Shown here piece by piece: positions 25,347 through 62,546 of a stretch of DNA of 64,000 bases; within the stretch, counting starts at the first letter, position 1; every line of letters begins with the position of its first letter. The DNA comes from Escherichia phage vB_EcoM_G50, in the sequence record NC_054917.1. One strand, written 5' to 3'. Under the pieces are notes generated by a model, which searched no databases, had not been told where the DNA came from, and saw only the letters and a list, made by a program, of their open reading frames with translations. A program made the position numbers and the translations under genes.

Positions 25347-27440
25347 TTATCCTTGAACGAACTTGTAAGGCATGTTTGTAATATCTATGCAAGACGCAAT
25401 AATTCCAAGAGATGATTCTACTTTCTGTTTAACATTTGATGAAACAAACGATGCAAAGTCAACTCTGTCTTCTATTTCAATATCATCTGTCATTGCAACT
25501 ACTTCACCGGTTTCCATTAGACGGTCACCGTCATAAATGACTGATTCGGTGAGCTCTTCTGTAGTCATAACTTCAGCTTGAATGAGTTTTGTATTATTAG
25601 ATGTTGTTCCGTCATTATTAGAAGCATCAGTTATTTTATTAACTTTGACCATCAATCCGCGTGGTAGAATAACTTCAGCTTCTGTTGCTATTCCGAGACT
25701 TCCTGGATATACAACATTAACTTTATGAGCTCCATCAATTGCCCATCCTATTTGAACTTTAACGTATTCAGGATTTTCTTTATACGCTCTTATTTCGTTT
25801 GGATTAATAGTTATTCCTTCTTCATTTTTATCAACTGTTAATTCATTACGAGCTTCTGGTTCTAAAAGACCAATACCAGCATGCGTAATTCCAAAACGTC
25901 CAAAAATGATAGGAGTTAAAGAAGTAGATACAAAATTTCTGAAATAGAACACTTTATTTTTAACTAGCGCTTCGTATATAGGAGCAGTCATACTTTGAGC
26001 ACGATAAACTGTAATGCCTTCTGGTATACGGTCACCATTTTCAAAAGCTGAATCTAAATTATTTATCGCAGATTCAATTTCTTTTTCACTCATTACATCA
26101 TATCGTTCTGGATTGTAGCGGCCTAAAAGAAGATTATTGATGTCAGTATATCCTGATCCACAATACTCTCTAATGCCGCGCTTTTGTGATGGAGTATATT
26201 TAGAACCATCACGGGCAATAGTAATATCAATCATTGGACCTGCACCAATTCCAGAAAAGCTATAAATCATTCGTTTGAGGAATTTAGTTTTTGCTGCGTT
26301 CCAGGAATTTTTAGTTATTTCTTCCCAGACTTCATCTGGCTGTCCTTTACGGGTTTTATTATGTTTATCAAGCCAATTATCTTTATATTCTTCAAAGAAT
26401 TGATTAACAGCTGCTGCGTATTTCTCTAAACATTTTATTGAAGTGGTTGGTTCATTTTTAATCGCATTAAGAATTACATCTTTAATTTTTTCAGAAACTT
26501 CATTAACCTCACTTTTTGAAAAGAATTTATAGTCATAGTGAAGTTCATCTGCGGTTCCTTCGGCAATGATTTTTGCTGCCTTAGTTTTAGAAGCTAATGA
26601 ATTAATTCCAAGCTTCATTTCTTCTGCTTCGGGAATTAAAGGAGCTGTAGCAGGTTTATTGAAATTAGCTGCGGTAGATTCATATTTCTGGAATAATTCA
26701 CTTTCAAATCTAGAAGATTCCAATGACTGACTTTGCGCAATTGCTCTACGGGAAATTTTAACTTTAACGATTACAGCTTGGTCAGAACGTTTATCGTTTT
26801 CTTGCGCAATAGATGCCGCAATTGCCTCATTTTTAGTTACTTGAGCTCCAGTATCTTTATTGATATAAACATCGCCGACTTTCGATTCAACTTTAGTAAA
26901 GAGCTCGGTACTAATTTCCGGAACTCCTGGAATGTCTTCTAGTGATACATTTTTGCGATGTATAAGAATATATGCATACTTTTTATCGTAATCCCAGAGT
27001 TCCTTAAGAAGGACGTATCTGCCACCTGAACGACTGCGGATAAGTCTATCAGCAATAACTTGAATTTGTCGAGCTTGACCAGCAGTTTTAGACTTAAGAA
27101 TACGAAGCATACAGGCATCAATTTTATACTGACGCATCGTTTGCATCGCAACAGTAAAAACTGAATTGATGTAATTAATTGGGCTTGGACCGAGACCTTT
27201 CAATTTAGCAATTGAACCTTTAGCAGTTAATGTAAAAGGAACAATGTGCATCATTTTATCGCCCATCTTTAGATCACGGTTAGTATCACCTCCAGATGTA
27301 TAGGTACATAAACGAAAGCCTGGTTGTTCAATTGCGTCATCAACATGAACTGAAAAAATTTGCGGTATTTTCTTCTTTGGATTTAAGTTTGTAATCGGAA
27401 GAGTAGTATCTTCGTCAAATAATTCTGTAATGAGTTCCAT
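25347..27440 (-). CDS. alt: Alt ADP-ribosyltransferase (packaged RNAP-modifying enzyme)
   Basis: 697 aa from second ATG (MELITELFDEDTTLPITNL... recognised as T4 Alt; first ATG at 27443 has too-short SD spacing); ART signature VYRAQ, FVSTSL, EAEVILPRG; TATAAATA late promoter upstream. Confidence 0.87.
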   Translation of the reverse strand: MELITELFDEDTTLPITNLNPKKKIPQIFSVHVDDAIEQPGFRLCTYTSGGDTNRDLKMGDKMMHIVPFTLTAKGSIAKLKGLGPSPINYINSVFTVAMQTMRQYKIDACMLRILKSKTAGQARQIQVIADRLIRSRSGGRYVLLKELWDYDKKYAYILIHRKNVSLEDIPGVPEISTELFTKVESKVGDVYINKDTGAQVTKNEAIAASIAQENDKRSDQAVIVKVKISRRAIAQSQSLESSRFESELFQKYESTAANFNKPATAPLIPEAEEMKLGINSLASKTKAAKIIAEGTADELHYDYKFFSKSEVNEVSEKIKDVILNAIKNEPTTSIKCLEKYAAAVNQFFEEYKDNWLDKHNKTRKGQPDEVWEEITKNSWNAAKTKFLKRMIYSFSGIGAGPMIDITIARDGSKYTPSQKRGIREYCGSGYTDINNLLLGRYNPERYDVMSEKEIESAINNLDSAFENGDRIPEGITVYRAQSMTAPIYEALVKNKVFYFRNFVSTSLTPIIFGRFGITHAGIGLLEPEARNELTVDKNEEGITINPNEIRAYKENPEYVKVQIGWAIDGAHKVNVVYPGSLGIATEAEVILPRGLMVKVNKITDASNNDGTTSNNTKLIQAEVMTTEELTESVIYDGDRLMETGEVVAMTDDIEIEDRVDFASFVSSNVKQKVESSLGIIASCIDITNMPYKFVQG

Positions 27441-36429: not shown

Positions 36430-37632
<1,203 letters not shown>

Positions 37633-37636
<4 letters not shown>

Positions 37637-40682: not shown

Positions 40683-41861
40683 TTAAAAATATTTTTTAAA
40701 ACTCATCATAACTTTATCATCAACATCATTATCAATCTGTGCAACAAGATAAGATGACAGTTCTACTTCTTGTGGCGCGGATTGAACATTATCAGAATTA
40801 AGATATTCACGAATCCAAGGATATGGGTGTTTAACCGGAGCATCGGTAATTGGGCATGGAAGACCACACTGTTTCATACGAGATACAGTTAAGTAATCAA
40901 TAAAGCTCCACATGCTATTTGTATTTAATCCAGGAACATCGCCATCTTTAAATAAATGAACTGCCCAATCTTTTTCTTGGCGGTTAACTTCCATGAAAAT
41001 ATCAACTGCTTCTTGTTCACACTCTTGAGCAATTTTAACCCATTCATCGCCATCAGTGCCAAGTTGAAGTTGACGAATAATATATTGGGTGCCTTTAAGG
41101 TGAAGCTGCTCATCACGTGCAATGAACTTCATAATCTTGGCATTACCTTCCATGATTTCCATGTTCTTATGGAAGTTAAAGGTACACGCGAAAGATACAT
41201 AAAAACGAATAGCTTCTAAGGCATTAATAACGTGCAAACAGAGGTAAAGAGATTTCATTAGCTCACGCTTCCAATATGTCTCATGCTCAATAGCATCTTC
41301 AATAACGTCTTCGTCTGCATTAATTTCTTTTTGGTATTCGATATCAGCTTTAGCGTTTTCCCAATAACGAGTTTTAATCAGAACATCATCATAATAACGT
41401 CCAATGGATTCAGCACGTTTCATAATAGCTTCATCTAATACAATTTCATCAAATACCTTCGATGGATCAGTATAAAGATTTCGCATGATATGTGTATATG
41501 AACGGCTGTGAATAGTTTCACTAAAAGTCCATGTAGCAACCCATGTATCAAGGCTTGGGTCTGAAATTAATGACATAAGTACAGCAGACGGTGCACGACC
41601 CTGAATGCTATCCAAAAGTGATTGATACTTCAGGTTATTAGTAAAAATATTTTGCTGATACTGAGGAAGCTTATTAAACTGTGCAGCATCCATCATTAAG
41701 TTTACTTCTTCAGGACGCCAGAAAAATGATAATTGCTTTTCGGTCAAATCTTCAAAAACTTTATGGCGTTGAATATCATAACGCGCAATACCAAGACCTG
41801 AACCAAAAAACATAGGTTCTTTTAAAACATCAACTGGATTTGTATTAAAAACTGTAGACAT
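40683..41861 (-). CDS. nrdB: Ribonucleotide reductase beta subunit NrdB (uninterrupted, no intron)
   Basis: 392 aa from ATG 41861 (MSTVFNTNPVDVL...); di-iron RNR small subunit; ATG overlaps stop of the upstream HNH gene. Confidence 0.93.
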   Translation of the reverse strand: MSTVFNTNPVDVLKEPMFFGSGLGIARYDIQRHKVFEDLTEKQLSFFWRPEEVNLMMDAAQFNKLPQYQQNIFTNNLKYQSLLDSIQGRAPSAVLMSLISDPSLDTWVATWTFSETIHSRSYTHIMRNLYTDPSKVFDEIVLDEAIMKRAESIGRYYDDVLIKTRYWENAKADIEYQKEINADEDVIEDAIEHETYWKRELMKSLYLCLHVINALEAIRFYVSFACTFNFHKNMEIMEGNAKIMKFIARDEQLHLKGTQYIIRQLQLGTDGDEWVKIAQECEQEAVDIFMEVNRQEKDWAVHLFKDGDVPGLNTNSMWSFIDYLTVSRMKQCGLPCPITDAPVKHPYPWIREYLNSDNVQSAPQEVELSSYLVAQIDNDVDDKVMMSFKKYF

Positions 41862-42592
41862 TAATTTTTCCTCTTTAAAATTCTGCCGTGTTTCCAACCT
41901 GGCGGTATAATATCATCTTTACCTATAAGCGTGCATTCACTTCCATTATTAATCCATTTCTTACCGCGGATTCCTTTATAATCTCTTGGTTTTATTTTGT
42001 CAAACTTTGCATCAAGTTGATATGACCATCTAAATCCATAAGCATATTGAAATTTACCCTCGGCACAATATTTGATATTTGACCCGTTTCCATTAACTGA
42101 CCGGGACGCTGCCGCAATAGAGTGAAAGGTTTCTATGAAATCCCCATCTAATGAGAATTTATGTATTTCTACAGATGGGCACGCATATCTATTCACGTTA
42201 GATACATGCTGTTTAGTTTCGTTTTTATGATGCTTGCCTAGCATCCCTTTAGGATGAGGATTATTTTTCCAATATTTCTTAAAGAACTCAGAATTAGCTT
42301 TAGCAAATAATTTTCTGTGTAAGCTGTACAATCTGTTATTAATTCTATTGCCAGCTTTATCTGTTGCCATTAACGTTAACGCAGAGGCAAGACCAAAATG
42401 GCCTTCATTTATCTTACATAGTAATAGATGAGCTATAAAATGTTCTCTGGCTGTTAATTCAACTAAATTTTCCTTATCATCAGAACCTCCCATACATTTA
42501 GGGATTATATGATGTGTCTCTTTATATTCTAGTAAAGATTCCCGAGCCTGAGCTCGGGAAATTAGGTCGTTATAGATTTTTTGATAATTCAT
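41861..42592 (-). CDS. mobE: HNH homing endonuclease (MobE-like) between nrdA and nrdB
   Basis: 243 aa; HNH motif HHIIPKCMGGSDDKENLVELTAREHFIAH; inserted between the two RNR genes. Confidence 0.8.
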   Translation of the reverse strand: MNYQKIYNDLISRAQARESLLEYKETHHIIPKCMGGSDDKENLVELTAREHFIAHLLLCKINEGHFGLASALTLMATDKAGNRINNRLYSLHRKLFAKANSEFFKKYWKNNPHPKGMLGKHHKNETKQHVSNVNRYACPSVEIHKFSLDGDFIETFHSIAAASRSVNGNGSNIKYCAEGKFQYAYGFRWSYQLDAKFDKIKPRDYKGIRGKKWINNGSECTLIGKDDIIPPGWKHGRILKRKN

Positions 42593-44856
42593 TACAATTT
42601 ACACGCTGCGCAATCATCGGCTTTTGGAGTTTCTATTTCATAATCATCAGTACCGGAACCATCACGAGTATTATGATAATAGAAGTTTTTAATGCCATAA
42701 TACCATCCGTATAGCATGTCATCAATCATTATTGACATTGGAACCTTTCCTTTTGGAAAAATCTGCGGGTCATAGTATGTATTCGCTGAAGCTGATTGAC
42801 ATACCCATTTCAGCATAATAGCTACCTGCGTAAGATAAGGTTTATTACCTTTCTTAGCTAATTTCCATGTATAATCATAGAGGTCTATGTTATGCTCAAT
42901 ATTGGGCACGACTTGATTAAAGGAGCCCTCTTTTGATTCTTTAACAGAGACTGGTCCACGTGGAGGCTCGATACCGTTTGTACTGTTAGAAACTTGGGAA
43001 GATGACTCACATGGCATAAGTGCTGATAATGTGCTATTACGGATGCCAAAGAGCTTAAGGTCTTCCCGCAGCGACGACCAGTCACAAACGTATTTTGGAG
43101 CTGCGATTTGGTCAATCTTTTTATTGTACCAGTCGATAGGTAATTCGCCTCGAGACCAACGAGTGTCTGAATAATATTCGCAAGGTCCTTTTTCTTTGGC
43201 GAGCTTAATGGATGCTTTAATGAGTCCATACTGTAATCTCTCAAATAGTTCATGTGTTAAATCGTTAGCATCTTCATAAGAAGCAAAGTTACTTGCCAGC
43301 CAAGCTGCATAGTTGGTAACACCTACACCGAGGTTACGACGCTTTTTAGCTTTTTCTGCTTCAGGAACTGGATATCCTTGATAATCCAAAAGATTATCAA
43401 GAGCACGAACTTGAACTTCTGCCAATTCATTAATTTTATCTTGGTCTTGCCAGTCAAAATTATCTAGTACGAATGCAGAGAGAGTACACAATCCAATTTC
43501 AGCATCAGGACTGTTCACATCATTTGTTGGAATAGCAATTTCACAGCACAAGTTACTCTGACGAATAGGTGCCTTTTCACGAATAAACGGAGTATAGTTA
43601 TTCGTATTATCAATGAACTGCACATAAATCCTTGCTGTTCCTGAACGTTCAGTCATGAGCAATTCAAATAGTTCACGAGCTTTAATACGCTTTTTGCGAA
43701 TATTAGGGTCTTTTTCTGCTGCTTCGTATAATTCACGGAAACGGTCTTGGTCTTTAAAATAAGAATAATAAAGCTCGCCACCCATTTCATGCGGGCTGAA
43801 CAAAGTAATGTAATCATTCTTTCCGAATCGTTCCATCATCAAATCATTCAGCTGAACACCATAATCCATATGACGAATGCGGTTTTCTTCTACGCCTTTG
43901 TTATTTTTCAAAACGAGAAGATTTTCAACTTCCAAATGCCAAATAGGATAATAAGCAGTAGCAGCGCCGCCACGAATTCCACCCTGTGAACATGATTTAA
44001 CAGCAGTCTGAAAATGTTTCCAAAAAGGAATAACACCGGTATGGCGTACTTCACCCATGCCAATCTTAGAACCTTCGGCACGAATCATACCAACGTTAAT
44101 ACCAATTCCAGCGCGTTTAGAGATATATTCAACAATTGAAGCAGAAGCCTTATTGATAGACTTCAGCGAATCACCTGCCTCAATAACAACACATGAACTA
44201 AACTGTCGAGTCGGAGTACGGCAACCAGCCATAATAGGAGTTGGCAATGAAATCTGTCGAGTAGATACTGCTTCATAAAAACGGATAACATGTTTTAGTC
44301 TATCAACAGGTTCATCTTGATGCAATGCCATTCCAATAGTCATAAATGCAAACTGTGGAGTTTCATAAATTTGACCAGTGGTTTTATCTTTAACTAGATA
44401 TTTTTCTTTTAATTGCATCGCCCCGGAATAAGTAAATTCCATATCCCGCTCATGCTTAATTTTTGATTCTAAAAATGTAATTTCTTCGGCAGAATATTTT
44501 GACAACAATTCAGGGTCGTATTTACCTTCATTTACACAGTAAGAAATATGATCAATAAATGAACGTGGTTCATACTGCCCATAAACATGCTTACGAAGAG
44601 CGAACATTAAACAGCGTGCAGCTACATATTGATAATCAGGCTCTTCAACTGAAATAGAATTCGCAGCAGCCTTAATGACAATGGTTTGAATGTCATCAGT
44701 TGTCATTCCATCACGGAGATATGATTTAATATTTTCATATAATTCATAAGGATCTACAGATGTTCCTTCAGCTGCCCAAGATAAAACTTTAATAATTTTT
44801 TGCGGGTCAAAGCTCTGAGAAACACCACTACTTTTGATAACATTAATTAATTGCAT
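42592..44856 (-). CDS. nrdA: Ribonucleotide reductase alpha subunit NrdA
   Basis: 754 aa, T4 length; class I RNR large subunit. Confidence 0.95.
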   Translation of the reverse strand: MQLINVIKSSGVSQSFDPQKIIKVLSWAAEGTSVDPYELYENIKSYLRDGMTTDDIQTIVIKAAANSISVEEPDYQYVAARCLMFALRKHVYGQYEPRSFIDHISYCVNEGKYDPELLSKYSAEEITFLESKIKHERDMEFTYSGAMQLKEKYLVKDKTTGQIYETPQFAFMTIGMALHQDEPVDRLKHVIRFYEAVSTRQISLPTPIMAGCRTPTRQFSSCVVIEAGDSLKSINKASASIVEYISKRAGIGINVGMIRAEGSKIGMGEVRHTGVIPFWKHFQTAVKSCSQGGIRGGAATAYYPIWHLEVENLLVLKNNKGVEENRIRHMDYGVQLNDLMMERFGKNDYITLFSPHEMGGELYYSYFKDQDRFRELYEAAEKDPNIRKKRIKARELFELLMTERSGTARIYVQFIDNTNNYTPFIREKAPIRQSNLCCEIAIPTNDVNSPDAEIGLCTLSAFVLDNFDWQDQDKINELAEVQVRALDNLLDYQGYPVPEAEKAKKRRNLGVGVTNYAAWLASNFASYEDANDLTHELFERLQYGLIKASIKLAKEKGPCEYYSDTRWSRGELPIDWYNKKIDQIAAPKYVCDWSSLREDLKLFGIRNSTLSALMPCESSSQVSNSTNGIEPPRGPVSVKESKEGSFNQVVPNIEHNIDLYDYTWKLAKKGNKPYLTQVAIMLKWVCQSASANTYYDPQIFPKGKVPMSIMIDDMLYGWYYGIKNFYYHNTRDGSGTDDYEIETPKADDCAACKL

Positions 44857-45413: not shown

Positions 45414-46274
45414 TTACACCGCCATCTTTCCTTTCAAGACACCATGGGACTGATAATCTTTGAGAACGAAATCTCGTGCTGTCATATATTCAGTTAACCA
45501 ATACATTTGAGTTTCAGTATCGCATTGACTGAATCCATTAGGCCAATTAATACTAAGTTTGCATAGATCCATAGGAGTTCTATTTAATATCTCTTTGCAT
45601 TGCTCAATATGGTTAGAATAAATGTGTGTATTACCACCCGAGAATACCAAATCGCCCGGAACTAGTTCACACATATCAGCAACAATATGCAAAAGAGCAG
45701 CATAACTCGCGATGTTAAATGGAAGACCGAGGAAAACATCTACCGAACGTTGATACCATTGGAGGTCAAGGTATCCGTTACGCACATTAAACTGATAGAA
45801 CATATGACAAGGAGGTAATGCCATCTGCTTGAGTTCAGCTGGATTCCATGCCGACACAATTTGACGCCTATCGTTGGGAAATGTTTTAATACGATTAACA
45901 ACTTCTACAATTTGATCTACACCACCAAAATCACGCCACTGTTTTCCGTAAATTGGACCAAGTTCACCGCTATGATAACCTAAGTCTTTGGCCTGGTTTT
46001 CGTAGTTTTCATCCCAAATTGTTTTTCCTGCAATTAAAGATCCATGAGTACGTTGACGTAAATCATTTACGTTAGTACTTCCTGATAAGAACCACAATAA
46101 CTCAGAAATACATGCATTCCAGGCGAGCTTCTTAGTCGTTACTGCAGGAAAACCTTTAGTTAAATCCCAGCGTAATTTAGTACCGAACAAAGCAATTGTT
46201 CCTGTGCCTGTTCGGTCATCAGTTTCATAGCCATTTTCAAAAATGTCTTTAATTAAATCTTGGTATTGTTTCAT
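45414..46274 (-). CDS. td: Thymidylate synthase (uninterrupted, no intron)
   Basis: 286 aa continuous ORF; recognised T4 TS sequence; no intron unlike reference T4. Confidence 0.95.
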   Translation of the reverse strand: MKQYQDLIKDIFENGYETDDRTGTGTIALFGTKLRWDLTKGFPAVTTKKLAWNACISELLWFLSGSTNVNDLRQRTHGSLIAGKTIWDENYENQAKDLGYHSGELGPIYGKQWRDFGGVDQIVEVVNRIKTFPNDRRQIVSAWNPAELKQMALPPCHMFYQFNVRNGYLDLQWYQRSVDVFLGLPFNIASYAALLHIVADMCELVPGDLVFSGGNTHIYSNHIEQCKEILNRTPMDLCKLSINWPNGFSQCDTETQMYWLTEYMTARDFVLKDYQSHGVLKGKMAV

Positions 46275-46318
46275 TTAGTACCTTATATAAATTATAATAC
46301 ATTTTATGAAGCTAATAA

Positions 46319-46666
46319 TCAATACGGTTTAGCATCAAATTTTCTTTCAATTTCAGGCGTAAAATACAATTCTTTACCACGCTTGGAAAAGCGACCAATA
46401 ATATGATAATTATTCTCATCAAACGTGATATTGCCGATATCCATAGCTTTCAACCAAATATCGATATTTCTGTCAAGCTTTATATCAAAATTCCAATACG
46501 GAGAACTATTACCGAAAATACTACAAGCGGATTCAGTGAAACAACTGCTATAAATCTTGTCTTTAGGAACTACTAATTGATAGACGCCTTTAATAAACTG
46601 AGGACCCTGCCAATTTGGTTGTTTCGCGTCTTTTTCTAATAGAATAGGGTAATAATTAAAATTCAT
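46319..46666 (-). CDS. Hypothetical protein inserted between frd and td
   Basis: 115-aa ORF; no recognisable domain; not present at this junction in T4 as I recall it. Confidence 0.6.
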   Translation of the reverse strand: MNFNYYPILLEKDAKQPNWQGPQFIKGVYQLVVPKDKIYSSCFTESACSIFGNSSPYWNFDIKLDRNIDIWLKAMDIGNITFDENNYHIIGRFSKRGKELYFTPEIERKFDAKPY

Positions 46667-46685: not shown

Positions 46686-47512
<827 letters not shown>

Positions 47513-47520
47513 ATTATCTC

Positions 47521-47856
47521 CTAATATAAAGGATCGGGAACATATCCACTGGCTTTAATCATTTTGATTAACGTTAGCAGTCCTTTATTAACTGCTTGTG
47601 AGATTTCATTAAAAACTTCATCACTAAAAAGTTCTAGCACACCCTTCTGAACTTTTAATTTACAGCCAACAATTTCGTCATCGCCTATAGTAAATTCGTT
47701 TCCGCCAATTCCACCGAAAAACTTAATTACGCCAGTTAACTGTGTTCCACGAGAATATGGGTCGTGTGATAAAGTAATATGAGTCACCCCAGGTACAGTT
47801 TTAAATTGACAGCGGATGTTTACTTGAGCAATTCCAGTTACATGAATGTCAGACAT
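47521..47856 (-). CDS. Hypothetical protein (frd.2 position)
   Basis: 111-aa ORF. Confidence 0.55.
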   Translation of the reverse strand: MSDIHVTGIAQVNIRCQFKTVPGVTHITLSHDPYSRGTQLTGVIKFFGGIGGNEFTIGDDEIVGCKLKVQKGVLELFSDEVFNEISQAVNKGLLTLIKMIKASGYVPDPLY

Positions 47857-57968: not shown

Positions 57969-60900
57969 ATGGCTACTTTAAAACAAATACAATTTAAAAG
58001 AAGCAAAACCGCAGGTGCACGTCCTGCTGCTTCAGTATTAGCCGAAGGTGAATTGGCTATAAACTTAAAAGATAGAACAATTTTTACTAAAGATGATTCA
58101 GGAAATATCATTGACTTAAGCATTTCCGCTGGCGGTAATATCAGTGGTAATATCACTCAAACTGGTGATTATACACAGACTGGAAAATTTAATTTAATTG
58201 GTCCGCAAATTGTAGCAAGCGGTGGATATATTGAGTTTAATTATCGTACTACTGGAAGTGGGGTTTGGTCCGGTCAACACACTGCAAAAGCTCCAATTTT
58301 TGTAGATTTAAGCTCAGCTACTTCCACATCTGAATATAATCCTATAATTAAACAGCGCTTTAAAGACGGAACTTTTTCATTAGGTACTTTAGTTTCTGAA
58401 GGTTCGTTGAAGATTCATTATATTGATGAAACTGGTCAATCTAAATATTGGACATTTGCGCGCTCAGGTAATTTTCAAGTTGATTCTGGTAATTTATTAG
58501 TATCTGGTGGGTATTTAGTCGCTCAGAGTAATATTGAAACAAGAACAGGTTCTTTGATTGGTCCATCTGTTGTAACTAAAAATATTTCATTTGATACGAA
58601 AGCGTTTGGACAATACGATTCGCAGTCATTAGTTCAATATGTTTATCCTGGAACAGGCGAAGAAAATGGTATAAACTATCTTCGTAAAGTTCGAGCTAAA
58701 TCAGGTGGAACTATTTACCATGAAATTGCTTCTGCGCAGACTGGTAAGAATGATGAAATTTCTTGGTGGACCGGAAACTCGCTTACCACTAAATTAATGG
58801 GTCTTCGTAATGATGGCGCAATGGTATTACGTCGTTCACTTGCTATTGGCACAATTACCGCTGATGAAAATACTAACAACTATGGTTCTCCTACTCCAAT
58901 GGGAGAAAGATATATTGCTTTGGGTGATGCTGCAACCGGTTTAAAATATATTAAGCAAGGTGTTTATGATTTAGTAGGTAATTGGAATTCTGTTGCTTCT
59001 ATTACTCCTGATAGTTTCCGTAGTACTCGTAAAGCATTATTTGGACGTTCAGAAGATCAAGGCGGAACCTGGACAATGCCTGGAACGAACGCTGCTCTCT
59101 TGTCTGTTCAAACCCAGGCAGATGTGAATAACGCAGGCGATGGTCAAACCCACATTGGATATAATTCTGGCGGTAAATTTTCCCATTATTTCCGCGGTAA
59201 AGGCCAAACCAACATTAATACACAGGAAGGTATGGAAATTAACCCTGGTATTTTGAAATTGGTAACTGGCTCTAATAACGTACAGTTTTATGCTAATGGA
59301 ACAGTATCTTCAATACAAAGAATTAAATTTGATAACGGATTAGTTCTTACTGGTGCTAGACCTGACGGTATTCAACTTGACGCTCCTACATCAGCAGATG
59401 GCACTAAAACTATACTGTGGGCTGGTGGTACTCGCGCAGGTCAGAATAAAAGTTATGTATCTATTAAAGCGTGGGGTAATTCATTTAACGCATCTGGCGA
59501 TCGTGCTCGTGAAACAGTTTTTGAAGTGGCTGACGGGCAGGGATATTATTTTTATGCACAACGCACTACTCCTGCATCAGGTCAAACAGTAGGTCCGGTT
59601 AACTTTAAATTTAACGGAACTGTCGAAACAGGCCATATCATAGGCCTTGGAAATATAAGTGCCTCCGGTACAGGTTCTTTTGGTGGCAATGTTACCATGT
59701 CTAACGGTTTGTTTGTCCAAGGTGGTTCTTCTATTACTGGACAAGTTAAAATCGGCGGAACATCAGATGCATTAAGAATTTGGAATGCTGAATATGGTGC
59801 TATTTTCCGTCGTTCTGAAGATAAGTTTTATATTATTCCAACCCCACAGAATGCGGGTGAATCAGGCGGCATTTCTAATTTACGTCCGTTCTATATTGCA
59901 TTAAGTAATGGTAAAGTTTCCATGGATCATGATGTAGATATCGGCGGCGGTAGATTTAAAGTAGAAGTGGCTGGAACTACTTCTAATCAACGTATAACAC
60001 TAAATATGGCATCAGATGCTATTAGAATAAATGCTCCAACGCAAGAGTCTTCTAACTTCATCCAAGGACGTAAAGCAGATGTCCCAAAATGGTATTTGGG
60101 TATTGGCGATGGCGGAAACGTCGTTCGTATGCATAGTTACACTTACTCCCATGGTATTGCATTAAACTCTGATACTGTCGATATTACTAAGCCCCTTAAA
60201 ATTAATAATATTCGAATTGGTACAGATGGCAACATCACAGGTGGTACTGATAATTTTGCCAACTTAAATACAACGTTAAATCGTAAAGTTAATTCTGGAT
60301 TTATTACTTATGGAGCAACTGCTGGATGGTATAAGTTTGCAACAGTAACAATGCCACAATCCACTTCTACAGTCTTCTTTAAAATAGCCGGTGGTTCTGG
60401 ATTTAATAGCGGATTATTCACACAGTGCAATATTGCTGAAATTGTTTTACGTACTAGTAATGAAAGACCTGCTGACTTAAATGCTGTATTATACACAAGA
60501 ACAATTGCAGCTGCATTTAAAAATATTGCAGTTAATAACGTCTCTGGAGATACATATGACATTTATGTTTATGCCGGAACATATTGCAATCAATTAACTT
60601 GTGAATGGTCATGTACCGAAAATGCTGCTGTTAGCGTTATTGGTATTAACTCATCGACCCAATCACCTGTGGATGCTCTTCCAGATACAGCAGTTGATGG
60701 GCAAGTTGCTAATGTTCTTAATAACTTGGTTGATCGCGGCAAAGGTAAGCGTTATGAAGCCGATTCTGAAATAGCTATTAATAGCCAAACTGGTATTCGT
60801 ATTAGAAGCAACAGCGATAAAACTGGTTCTGTTGCTACAATGCTACGAAATGATGGCGGTAGTTTTTATATTCTGTTTACAGATAAAAATGCCACCGATG

Positions 60901-61724
60901 GCGAAGCGACTGTTAACGGTGAATGGAATAGTAAGCGTCCTTTCGCTATTAACTTAACAACCGGTGAAGTGATGATGAATAATGGCATAGCTGTTCGCAG
61001 CGCTGCTTTATTCTATAATAGCATAAACGTCAAAGATAATGGTTCTATTAACTTTGATAAATCAGGTGCTAACCCGAGAAATATGAGAATATTTCATGCT
61101 GGCGATGCTTCTCGCGGTAACCGTATTGAAATTGCCGATGAAACTAACTATATTGCTTACTTTGAAAAAGCTCCAGGTGGAGCTAACCGCTTTGTAGTAA
61201 ATAATGCTACTGTAGCTGGTGTTAACCAAATGAATTCATTTGGTATTAATATCAATAACGCACTTGGTGGAAATAGTATAGCATTTGGTGATAGCGATAC
61301 TGGTATTAAGCAAAATGGCGATGGATTATTAGACATATATGCGAACAGCGTACAAGTATTCCGTTTCCAAAACGGTGATTTGTACTCATACAAAAATATA
61401 AATGCTCCAAACGTTTATATTCGTTCTGATATTCGTTTAAAATCCAACTTTAAACCTATCGAAAATGCACTTGATAAAGTTGAAAAACTTAACGGTGTCA
61501 TTTACGATAAAGCTGAATACATTGGTGGAGAGGCAATTGAAACTGAAGCGGGTATTGTGGCTCAAACGCTACAAGACGTTTTACCAGAAGCTGTCCGTGA
61601 AACAGAAGACAGTAAGGGTAATAAAATACTCACTGTTTCTTCTCAAGCCCAGATTGCTCTTCTGGTTGAAGCTGTGAAAACACTTTCTGCTCGTGTAAAA
61701 GAACTTGAATCTAAACTTATGTAA
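57969..61724 (+). CDS. 37: Long tail fiber distal subunit gp37, T2-type with C-terminal intramolecular chaperone domain
   Basis: 1251 aa (T4 is 1026 as recalled); conserved N-terminus; C-terminal SDIRLKSN...LDKVEKLNGVIY resembles the autoproteolytic S74-type chaperone domain. Confidence 0.9.
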   Translation: MATLKQIQFKRSKTAGARPAASVLAEGELAINLKDRTIFTKDDSGNIIDLSISAGGNISGNITQTGDYTQTGKFNLIGPQIVASGGYIEFNYRTTGSGVWSGQHTAKAPIFVDLSSATSTSEYNPIIKQRFKDGTFSLGTLVSEGSLKIHYIDETGQSKYWTFARSGNFQVDSGNLLVSGGYLVAQSNIETRTGSLIGPSVVTKNISFDTKAFGQYDSQSLVQYVYPGTGEENGINYLRKVRAKSGGTIYHEIASAQTGKNDEISWWTGNSLTTKLMGLRNDGAMVLRRSLAIGTITADENTNNYGSPTPMGERYIALGDAATGLKYIKQGVYDLVGNWNSVASITPDSFRSTRKALFGRSEDQGGTWTMPGTNAALLSVQTQADVNNAGDGQTHIGYNSGGKFSHYFRGKGQTNINTQEGMEINPGILKLVTGSNNVQFYANGTVSSIQRIKFDNGLVLTGARPDGIQLDAPTSADGTKTILWAGGTRAGQNKSYVSIKAWGNSFNASGDRARETVFEVADGQGYYFYAQRTTPASGQTVGPVNFKFNGTVETGHIIGLGNISASGTGSFGGNVTMSNGLFVQGGSSITGQVKIGGTSDALRIWNAEYGAIFRRSEDKFYIIPTPQNAGESGGISNLRPFYIALSNGKVSMDHDVDIGGGRFKVEVAGTTSNQRITLNMASDAIRINAPTQESSNFIQGRKADVPKWYLGIGDGGNVVRMHSYTYSHGIALNSDTVDITKPLKINNIRIGTDGNITGGTDNFANLNTTLNRKVNSGFITYGATAGWYKFATVTMPQSTSTVFFKIAGGSGFNSGLFTQCNIAEIVLRTSNERPADLNAVLYTRTIAAAFKNIAVNNVSGDTYDIYVYAGTYCNQLTCEWSCTENAAVSVIGINSSTQSPVDALPDTAVDGQVANVLNNLVDRGKGKRYEADSEIAINSQTGIRIRSNSDKTGSVATMLRNDGGSFYILFTDKNATDGEATVNGEWNSKRPFAINLTTGEVMMNNGIAVRSAALFYNSINVKDNGSINFDKSGANPRNMRIFHAGDASRGNRIEIADETNYIAYFEKAPGGANRFVVNNATVAGVNQMNSFGININNALGGNSIAFGDSDTGIKQNGDGLLDIYANSVQVFRFQNGDLYSYKNINAPNVYIRSDIRLKSNFKPIENALDKVEKLNGVIYDKAEYIGGEAIETEAGIVAQTLQDVLPEAVRETEDSKGNKILTVSSQAQIALLVEAVKTLSARVKELESKLM

Positions 61725-61725
61725 A

Positions 61726-61753
61726 AGAGGGCTTCGGCCCTCTAAGGATTTTT
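61726..61753 (+). terminator. Hairpin/attenuator between genes 37 and 38 (UUCG tetraloop)
   Basis: AGAGGGC-TTCG-GCCCTCT then short T-run overlapping gene 38 RBS. Confidence 0.4.
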
Positions 61754-61754
61754 A

Positions 61755-62546
61755 ATGGCAATTGTAGGTGTTCCTGGCTGGATTGGCGAATCTGCCGTGA
61801 ATGAAACTGGACAACGTTGGATGGATGCTGCAATGAAAGCAGTTCGCGTTTCAGTTCCTGGTTGGATGAGCTCAATGGCTGGACAATCTAAAGAAGTATA
61901 TTACAGTATTGGTGCTAGCAATTCTTATAATAAAGACACGCTAATAAATTGGATAAAAGCCCAAGGAAGCACTCCTGTTGTTATTACAATTACAGGCAAT
62001 ATCGTTTCTTCATCGACAGGTCAACCATGCTTAGATTTTCCTAGCTCATTAACTAATGCATACGTTACCTTAAACATTAATAGTGGGGTTCATGTATTAG
62101 GTCGGGGAGGAAATGGCGGAAGTAACTCTGCTGGTAGAGCAGGCGGAACTGCAATAAATAACGGAATTGGAACTCGTTTAAGAATAAACAATAATGGTAT
62201 TATTGGCGGTGGCGGCGGTGGCGGCGCAGGCGCTAGATACAATCCTTTCCCTCAAATGGATATGATATTTGGCGGTGGCGGAGGTCGTCCATTTGGTGCA
62301 GCCGGTGCAGCTGGAGGCGGTGCCGCGGCAGCATCGGCTGGTACAATTTCTGCTCCTGGTAAAGGCACTGTTTCTGGGGTTCACCACGGAGGAGATGGTG
62401 GAGATTTGGGAGCTGCTGGCAAATCTTCATATATTCAAGGCGGTACTGGAGGAACTATTTACTCGGGTGGCGCTGCTGGTAAAGCTGTTACTGGAAACGC
62501 TCCAACTTGGACTAAAGTTGGTACAATATATGGTGCAAGGGTATAA
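61755..62546 (+). CDS. 38: Receptor-recognising adhesin gp38 (T2-type, glycine-rich motifs)
   Basis: 263 aa; poly-Gly blocks (GGGGGGAGAR, GGGGGRPFGAAGAAGGG) separating variable segments. Confidence 0.85.
   Translation: MAIVGVPGWIGESAVNETGQRWMDAAMKAVRVSVPGWMSSMAGQSKEVYYSIGASNSYNKDTLINWIKAQGSTPVVITITGNIVSSSTGQPCLDFPSSLTNAYVTLNINSGVHVLGRGGNGGSNSAGRAGGTAINNGIGTRLRINNNGIIGGGGGGGAGARYNPFPQMDMIFGGGGGRPFGAAGAAGGGAAAASAGTISAPGKGTVSGVHHGGDGGDLGAAGKSSYIQGGTGGTIYSGGAAGKAVTGNAPTWTKVGTIYGARV
62200..62345. repeat. GGY-codon simple repeats encoding glycine-rich motifs of gp38
   Basis: runs of ggcggtggcggcggtggcggc and related. Confidence 0.8.

Follow-up and report, generated by a model that had tools for sequence, protein, structure and literature searches.

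An RB3-type mobE allele at the nrdA-nrdB junction of Escherichia phage vB_EcoM_G50

The junction between nrdA and nrdB in the genome of Escherichia phage vB_EcoM_G50 very probably contains a real and intact gene for a free-standing HNH homing endonuclease, which belongs to the T-even 'mob' family and represents its RB3-type allele. The gene was identified in a window of 64,000 nucleotides (sequence record NC_054917.1; all coordinates given here are those of the window), where an ORF of 243 amino acids with an ATG start is located at 41861-42592 on the minus strand. The allele is already known, since RB3-type mobE is annotated in GenBank/RefSeq and has about 50 sequenced T4-like carriers. The main use of the present analysis is the correct annotation of a mobE allele that had already been described, at a recognised homing endonuclease hotspot. 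In addition, the nrdA-nrdB locus presents a clean natural example of homing endonuclease module swapping.

Position of the gene and occupancy of the nrdA-nrdB junction

In this Tequatrovirus (T4-like) genome, the gap between nrdA and nrdB is wholly occupied by the 243-amino-acid ORF, with an overlap of 1 nt at each end. The ATG of the endonuclease gene (42592-42590) has one base in common with the TAA stop codon of nrdA (42594-42592), giving the sequence TAATG at 42590-42594 on the minus strand. At the other end, the TAA stop codon (41863-41861) has one base in common with the ATG of nrdB (41861-41859). The 3' end of the endonuclease gene, with the nrdB ribosome-binding site (AAAGAGGAAAAATTAATG) and the TAATG stop/start overlap, lies at 41859-41876 on the minus strand, and the nrdB Shine-Dalgarno sequence GAGG (41873-41870) is placed within the final codons of the endonuclease gene; for comparison, the nrdB leader in phages with an empty site is TAAGTGGAAAATTTATG. 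An earlier note on this DNA had described a 243-amino-acid HNH ORF at the nrdA-nrdB junction with a stop codon overlapping the nrdB ATG, and both the ORF list and the sequence bear this out.

The adjacent genes are likewise encoded on the minus strand. nrdA (42592-44856) codes for a protein of 754 amino acids, and its last 28 nt or so belong to an endonuclease-linked haplotype; nrdB (40683-41861) is continuous and codes for 392 amino acids from the real ATG. Further upstream, nrdA.1 (DUF4326), nrdA.2 (DUF5496), td and frd were identified, and downstream denA, rnlA, alc and pseT. The 4.4-kb region around the ORF was matched by 996 phage records, the best of which, PYps55T and UPWr_E2, are 98.3% identical.

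The occupancy of the junction was surveyed with a query of 400 nt from the 3' end of nrdA fused to 400 nt from the 5' end of nrdB. A spread sample was taken from the 487 records covering at least 80% of this query in one place, and the 43 rows with full coverage were counted. About 33 of these junctions are empty (800 + 53 nt), six contain the same 732-nt insert as the window, two are of the slur04 type with a 639-nt insert and one has the T4 arrangement. Close relatives were shown to differ in whether they carry the endonuclease gene at precisely the nrdA-nrdB site, a locus which is described in the literature as a hotspot for endonuclease insertion. Alignment of the junction with phages lacking the insert, a comparison which the earlier note had proposed, revealed that the 732 nt stand where the relatives have a spacer of about 51-53 nt. 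In these empty-site phages, the nrdA product ends in DCSSCKL, whereas it ends in DCAACKL in all examined endonuclease-bearing Tequatroviruses of both allele types. The endonuclease-linked haplotype therefore begins about 28 nt inside nrdA.

In other genera, a gene of the same NUMOD1 type was identified in the same slot and with the same overlaps, namely in Gaprivervirus RZ (73% amino acid identity) and in Gelderlandvirus Melville (61%). NUMOD1-type genes at 58-66% are also carried by three IMG/VR loci (L017, L018 and L022). The slot is occupied by Hef in phage U5 and in two IMG/VR loci.

The closest described relative is RB3 MobE (KM606994 RB3_226; GenBank AY262130.2; RefSeq NC_025419), which is 97% identical to the window protein over 243/243 residues, with 96% identity at the nucleotide level. 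The two genes differ at 30 nt, mostly synonymous (21 synonymous and 9 non-synonymous), and the junctions in RB3 are the same as in the window, the start overlapping the nrdA stop and the stop overlapping the nrdB ATG. RB3 mobE and U5 hef were reportedly first sequenced by Sandegren et al. in 2005. At the DNA level, the full-length gene was found in 53 phage records. Among these are 16 in which the identity to the window gene is 99.7-100%; they comprise the RefSeq entries NC_054920 (G9062) and NC_054921 (IME537) as well, both of which annotate the gene as 'homing endonuclease'. In a further 59 records, the match is confined to about nt 1-165/170 of the gene.

The earlier note had also claimed that nrdB (392 amino acids) and td (286 amino acids) are continuous, with the T4 group I introns absent, and this was confirmed by BLASTN against T4 and RB3. 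The nrdB intron, which comprises 598 bp in T4 and 1091 bp in RB3, is cleanly absent between positions 41185 and 41186, and the td intron (1017 bp in T4, 1016 bp in RB3) is cleanly absent between 45725 and 45726 in td (45414-46274, minus strand). A scan for Rfam group I introns gave no match in the window, but also none on the T4 locus with both introns, which was used as a positive control. The Rfam result therefore carries no weight, and the absence of the introns rests on the BLASTN gaps. The empty nrdB intron site differs by one base from the exon junction of RB3 and T4, and the td intron site shows many synonymous differences from T4. The td gene of the window is a divergent allele, with 79% amino acid identity to T4 Td and about 85% nucleotide identity to most Tequatroviruses. 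An intronless td was found in about 296 of the 532 td-matching records (about 56%).

The earlier note had concluded from the absence of introns that the phage has a distinct mobile-element complement. The combination of the endonuclease gene with intronless nrdB and td stands; it is, however, not unusual and has already been sequenced. G9062 (RefSeq) contains the identical endonuclease gene with both nrdB and td intronless, and at least 24 records combine the RB3-type gene with an intronless nrdB. In RB3 and G2540-3, the RB3-type allele occurs together with the nrdB intron. RB3 has an intact I-TevIII in this intron and additionally a td intron with I-TevI, whereas the window contains neither intron. 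Carriage of the endonuclease gene without the introns is one of the usual outcomes of a combinatorial polymorphism that is already well known. When T4 I-TevI, I-TevIII from T4 and RB3, Hef and the slur04 endonuclease were compared to the window by tblastn, only the mobE ORF was matched, and a regular-expression search for GIY-YIG and HHxxP over all window ORFs also gave a match only in the 243-amino-acid ORF. By colinearity with the annotated G9062 genome, no additional seg or mob insertion was identified in the 64-kb window.

The HNH core and the C-terminal region of the protein

The ORF contains the motif HHIIPKCMGG, followed by N42, H51 and H55. Both features on which the earlier note had let the HNH assignment depend were found: the protein matched PHROG 655 ('homing endonuclease') with E = 4.6e-57 in a profile search, and the metal-binding residues are unvarying in 32/32 aligned homologues. 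In this alignment, E25, H27, H28, P31, G36, N42, E50, H51 and H55 are all unvarying. The catalytic core is encoded by a 5' module of nt 1-165 (42428-42592, minus strand; aa 1-55), which according to the alignments is common to the T4-type mobE alleles.

The Pfam HNH model matched aa 22-44 with 19.7 bits, slightly below its cut-off of 21.4 bits. Since T4 MobE itself reaches a score of only 21.5 bits, the subfamily lies at the margin of this model. In the allele-specific C-terminal region (aa ~58-243), the DNA-binding motif NUMOD1 was identified at aa 147-177 (42062-42154, minus strand; Pfam, E = 1.1e-5), with a score of 25.9 bits, above the cut-off of 22.8 bits. TIGR01453 (group I intron endonuclease, C-terminal part) matched aa 99-191 below its cut-off.

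An AlphaFold model built on the alignment of 32 homologues has a mean pLDDT of 90 and a pTM of 0.52, a value which is expected because the protein is a string of modules. In the model, a beta-beta-alpha element at aa 25-61 is followed by three helices and then by a beta-beta-alpha-alpha-beta unit at aa 143-190 (pLDDT ~95), with a beta-hairpin at the C-terminus. From the N-terminus onwards, the protein was shown to contain an HNH core of the beta-beta-alpha-metal type, in which no catalytic or metal-binding residue is missing, then helices and a NUMOD1 unit resembling a helix-turn-helix, and finally a beta-hairpin motif.

Among solved structures, the top match of the model is I-HmuI of Bacillus phage SPO1 (PDB 1u3e; probability 0.97, E = 4e-3), an HNH nicking homing endonuclease with a similar extended modular architecture of HNH and DNA-binding parts. 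The global TM-score of this match is only 0.22-0.29, which is weak in itself, but is expected for a flexible multi-module protein. I-HmuI differs from the window protein in being intron-encoded and in its module order, and is 12% identical in sequence. A sequence search of the PDB with the 243-amino-acid protein gave no significant match, the best being the HNH motif of a group II intron maturase (E = 0.09).

Relation to T4 MobE and the putative target site

T4 MobE has been studied experimentally and is a nicking HNH homing endonuclease (Wilson & Edgell 2009, PMC2790892). The earlier note had likened the ORF of the window to T4 mobE. The same slot and the free-standing HNH type are indeed shared, but a full-length orthology is not, since only the first ~57 amino acids are common. 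In the BLASTP comparison to T4 MobE which the note had recommended, aa 1-105 could be aligned, but near-identity is limited to aa 1-57. At the DNA level, the first ~165-190 nt are about 95% identical to T4 mobE, and the sequences are unrelated directly past the His55 codon; the C-terminal ~185 amino acids of the window protein are unrelated to the T4 MobE tail. Two genes share the slot in T4, mobE (141 aa, NP_049844) and, behind it, nrdB.1 (83 aa), whose product contains NUMOD3 and shows no similarity to the protein of the window. T4 MobE and NrdB.1 are jointly colinear on PHROG 655 and on an intact gene of the slur04 type, which codes for 213 amino acids. In T4, a NUMOD3/zinc-finger-type tail is split off as NrdB.1, whereas the window gene has a NUMOD1-type tail.

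The intact T4-type allele was identified in slur04 (YP_009625445), HY03 and KAW1E185, in the same slot and with the same 5' HNH module. It has a tail with NUMOD3 and a zinc finger of the form CPHCG...H, and its identity to the window protein is 65% over the first ~100 amino acids only; at the DNA level, this homology also stops just past the His55 codon. Across nt 1-165, the identity between the window and the T4-type phage G2540 is 100%. At least three alleles, the T4, slur04-type and RB3-type alleles, are built on one 5' cassette. The part in which the alleles differ is taken as the DNA-binding domain in the literature (PMC2790892; PMC2988022). An alternative homing endonuclease in the same slot is Hef of phage U5 (AY262133), which is an unrelated protein of 544 amino acids with no HNH or NUMOD1 match. 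Hef also cleaves nrdB (PMC2988022).

We tentatively propose that the nrdA-nrdB slot of Tevenvirinae hosts competing alleles, in which a shared HNH cassette (nt 1-165) is combined with swappable, unrelated tails. The RB3-type enzyme would then have a target different from the one of T4 MobE, possibly at or beside the empty junction, and the cassette would be the homology arm for the swapping of specificity modules.

For T4 MobE, the MobE-dependent nicks were mapped at nrdB nt 122-126 of phage T2, and polymorphisms at nrdB nt 114-131, including codon 42, were proposed to shield the carriers (Wilson and Edgell, PMC2790892). By comparison with that work, the equivalent of nt 122-126 is located at 41736-41740 on the minus strand of the window. 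In the window, codon 42 reads AAG, which is also the codon of phages without mobE, and nt 90-165 of nrdB differ by 1 nt from those of the empty-site phage VIPECOOM02. T4 nrdB has a strongly diverged patch at nt 114-135, which the window does not have, and the RB3-type carriers are not distinguishable from empty-site phages around nt 114-131. Use of the T4 MobE site would therefore leave the carrier without protection by polymorphism at this position. The C-terminal region is unrelated to the one of T4 MobE, and the target therefore need not be nrdB nt 122-126. The RB3-type enzyme may have a different target, may tolerate self-cutting, or the tracts may have been erased by later recombination. 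In this subgroup, polymorphisms at nrdB nt 7-95 are too sparse for the ends of the conversion tracts to distinguish among these three.

Alternatively, the gene might simply be an orthologue of T4 mobE, whose product would share the target of T4 MobE at nrdB nt 122-126 and likewise rely for immunity on polymorphisms in the region of codon 42. This is rather unlikely, even though the slot, the 5' 165 nt, the terminator hairpin and the start overlap are all as in T4 mobE and the RB3 gene is annotated as 'mobE'. For several members of the clade with near-identical endonuclease genes, identity to the window stops at nrdB nt 96-117, shortly before the nick site of T4 MobE, which would fit such an orthologue. 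On the other hand, the ~185 amino acids presumed to bind DNA are related neither to T4 MobE nor to NrdB.1, NUMOD1 is found in place of the NUMOD3 of the T4 type, and nrdB around codon 42 is as in phages without mobE. In addition, G9062 and G2540-3 contain an identical endonuclease gene, yet their nrdB deviates from that of the window at nt 4-6, 96 and 117; these differences count against a break at nt 122, because they fall inside the expected co-conversion tract. A different target of the RB3-type enzyme, if true, would account both for carriers lacking a protecting polymorphism where T4 MobE nicks and for the difference at nrdB nt 4-6 between the window and two carriers of the identical gene. 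Only the catalytic cassette is common to T4 MobE and the more widespread RB3-type enzyme, and conclusions on the T4 target and on self-immunity are therefore not transferable untried.

Selection, spread and expression of the gene

As judged from the comparison of alleles, the endonuclease gene was shown to be under purifying selection, with a dN/dS of 0.10 to the RB3 allele and likewise of 0.10 to the RZ allele. Synonymous sites are free to vary, with dS = 0.16 to RB3. In nine phages, the endonuclease gene nevertheless departs from the window at only 0-2 of 729 nt, whereas the 300 nt on either side diverge by 0.7-6%; in total, 5 differences were counted over 6561 nt of the gene versus 136 over 5400 nt of the flanks. 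A near-identical gene in diverged flanks, with synonymous sites free to vary, points to a recent spread with short flanking tracts, as expected of homing. This pattern suggests homing, the alternative being the general mosaic recombination of T4-like genomes. Together with the dN/dS of about 0.10, these sequence comparisons indicate a functional and recently spreading element.

It is improbable that the gene is a domesticated, fixed passenger, kept for cis-regulation by the nrdB ribosome-binding site and by a terminator tuning the nrdA:nrdB ratio, with a dispensable or inactive protein. The nrdB Shine-Dalgarno sequence in the last codons and the conserved terminator hairpin would be consistent with such a role. 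For T4, it was argued that embedded nrdB expression signals select against the deletion of mobE (PMC2790892). However, the dN/dS of about 0.10 implies that the protein sequence is selected and not the DNA signals alone, and the catalytic residues are unvarying. Furthermore, most relatives have a 53-bp spacer, hence the gene is unnecessary for nrd expression, and the near-identical gene in diverged flanks indicates a recent spread.

Homing endonuclease genes often decay once fixed, and the T4 equivalent is split into mobE and nrdB.1, but it is extremely unlikely that the window gene is such a decaying remnant without function, or an ORF that arose by chance; it has a full-length frame colinear with 61-77% identical homologues of other genera, is under purifying selection and gives a confident structure model (mean pLDDT 90); chance was ruled out because a large protein search retrieved 854 homologues at E <= 1e-5 and the same slot is used in other genera.

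Within the gene, a hairpin with a 9-bp stem and a 4-nt loop, followed by UCUUUAC, was identified at 42539-42560 on the minus strand by a terminator scan and RNA folding (-17.9 kcal/mol, z = -4.2). An identical stem-loop has been mapped as an intrinsic terminator inside T4 mobE (PMC2790892). The TAATG at the nrdA end is a further likeness to T4 mobE, whose start overlap on nrdA (UAAUGA) was proposed to mediate translational coupling (PMC2988022). A sigma-70 scan revealed no convincing promoter directly upstream of the endonuclease gene, and the 20 sites found versus 16 expected do not represent an enrichment.

By analogy to T4 MobE (PMC2790892), the endonuclease gene, having no promoter of its own, would be transcribed from the nrdA promoters, and its translation would be coupled to nrdA termination via TAATG, while the internal hairpin terminator would keep the level of the endonuclease low. 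In a mixed infection, the enzyme would nick or cut the nrd region of a co-infecting phage without the gene in a strand-specific manner. Recombination-dependent repair from the carrier genome would then copy the gene with short flanks into the recipient. Translation of nrdB depends on the ribosome-binding site in the last codons of the endonuclease gene, which also puts a cost on deletion of the gene.

As a separate observation, made by eye, the 3' end of the endonuclease gene contains a candidate MotA-type middle promoter for nrdB, consisting of CGCTTAT and TATTAT separated by 12 nt.

Modular organization of the endonuclease alleles between nrdA and nrdB

The first ~165 nt of the endonuclease gene (42428-42592 in the window) were found to be common to every allele type occupying the nrdA-nrdB slot, with up to 100% identity over this segment between the RB3-type allele of the window and the T4-type allele of phage vB_EcoM_G2540. 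The divergence of the alleles begins directly after the codon for the last catalytic His. This abrupt transition from a shared to a divergent sequence suggests that recombination has repeatedly had its breakpoint where the nuclease part meets the DNA-binding part.

In the T4 reference, two genes are present in this slot (NC_000866; 6717-7417 of the T4 locus L002), with mobE coding for 141 amino acids and nrdB.1 coding for 83 amino acids including NUMOD3. In phage slur04, and also in many other phages, an intact endonuclease gene of 213 amino acids was identified instead (701-1342 of the slur04 locus L004). Nucleotides 1-165 and the final ~250 nt are common to the T4 and slur04 genes, while the middle segment differs, and it is within this segment that the stop codon in T4 is located. 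mobE and nrdB.1 of T4 look like a split, mosaic form of the intact 213-amino-acid gene.

The intron insertion sites in nrdB and td

The unoccupied insertion site of the I-TevIII intron in nrdB (41185|41186; region 41141-41230) differs by one base from the RB3/T4 exon junction. With a site this similar, the phage may be able to receive the nrdB intron of RB3. At the T4 locus, Rfam at gathering thresholds missed the group I introns of both td and nrdB, which contain large ORF insertions; Rfam negatives are thus unusable for excluding introns of this kind.

The td gene of the window (45414-46274) is unusually divergent, sharing 79% of its amino acids with T4 Td. At the nucleotide level it is about 85% identical to the td of most Tequatroviruses, but 100% identical to that of phage bov9_1. 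The 5' part (45726-46277) is just 86% identical to T4, compared to ~94% for the adjoining DNA, and in the region of the I-TevI homing site many synonymous positions differ from T4.

Further differences from related phages

Three segments are absent from T4 and present in RB3 and/or G9062, namely a 100-amino-acid ORF adjoining pseT (37334-37636), a 115-amino-acid ORF without a Pfam match between frd and td (46319-46666), and a stretch of about 500 nt that separates frd from frd.1 (47288-47799). The sole sizeable stretches without a megablast match to G9062, a close relative, are 25677-26625 and 58103-62499. They lie where hypervariability is expected, in the alt-like ADP-ribosyltransferase region and in the genes for the distal tail fibre/adhesin. 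According to the annotation of phage IME537 (MT179807; 1-1501 of locus L046), which has a mobE-type gene identical to the one of the window, an additional 'putative homing endonuclease' gene interrupts nrdA.
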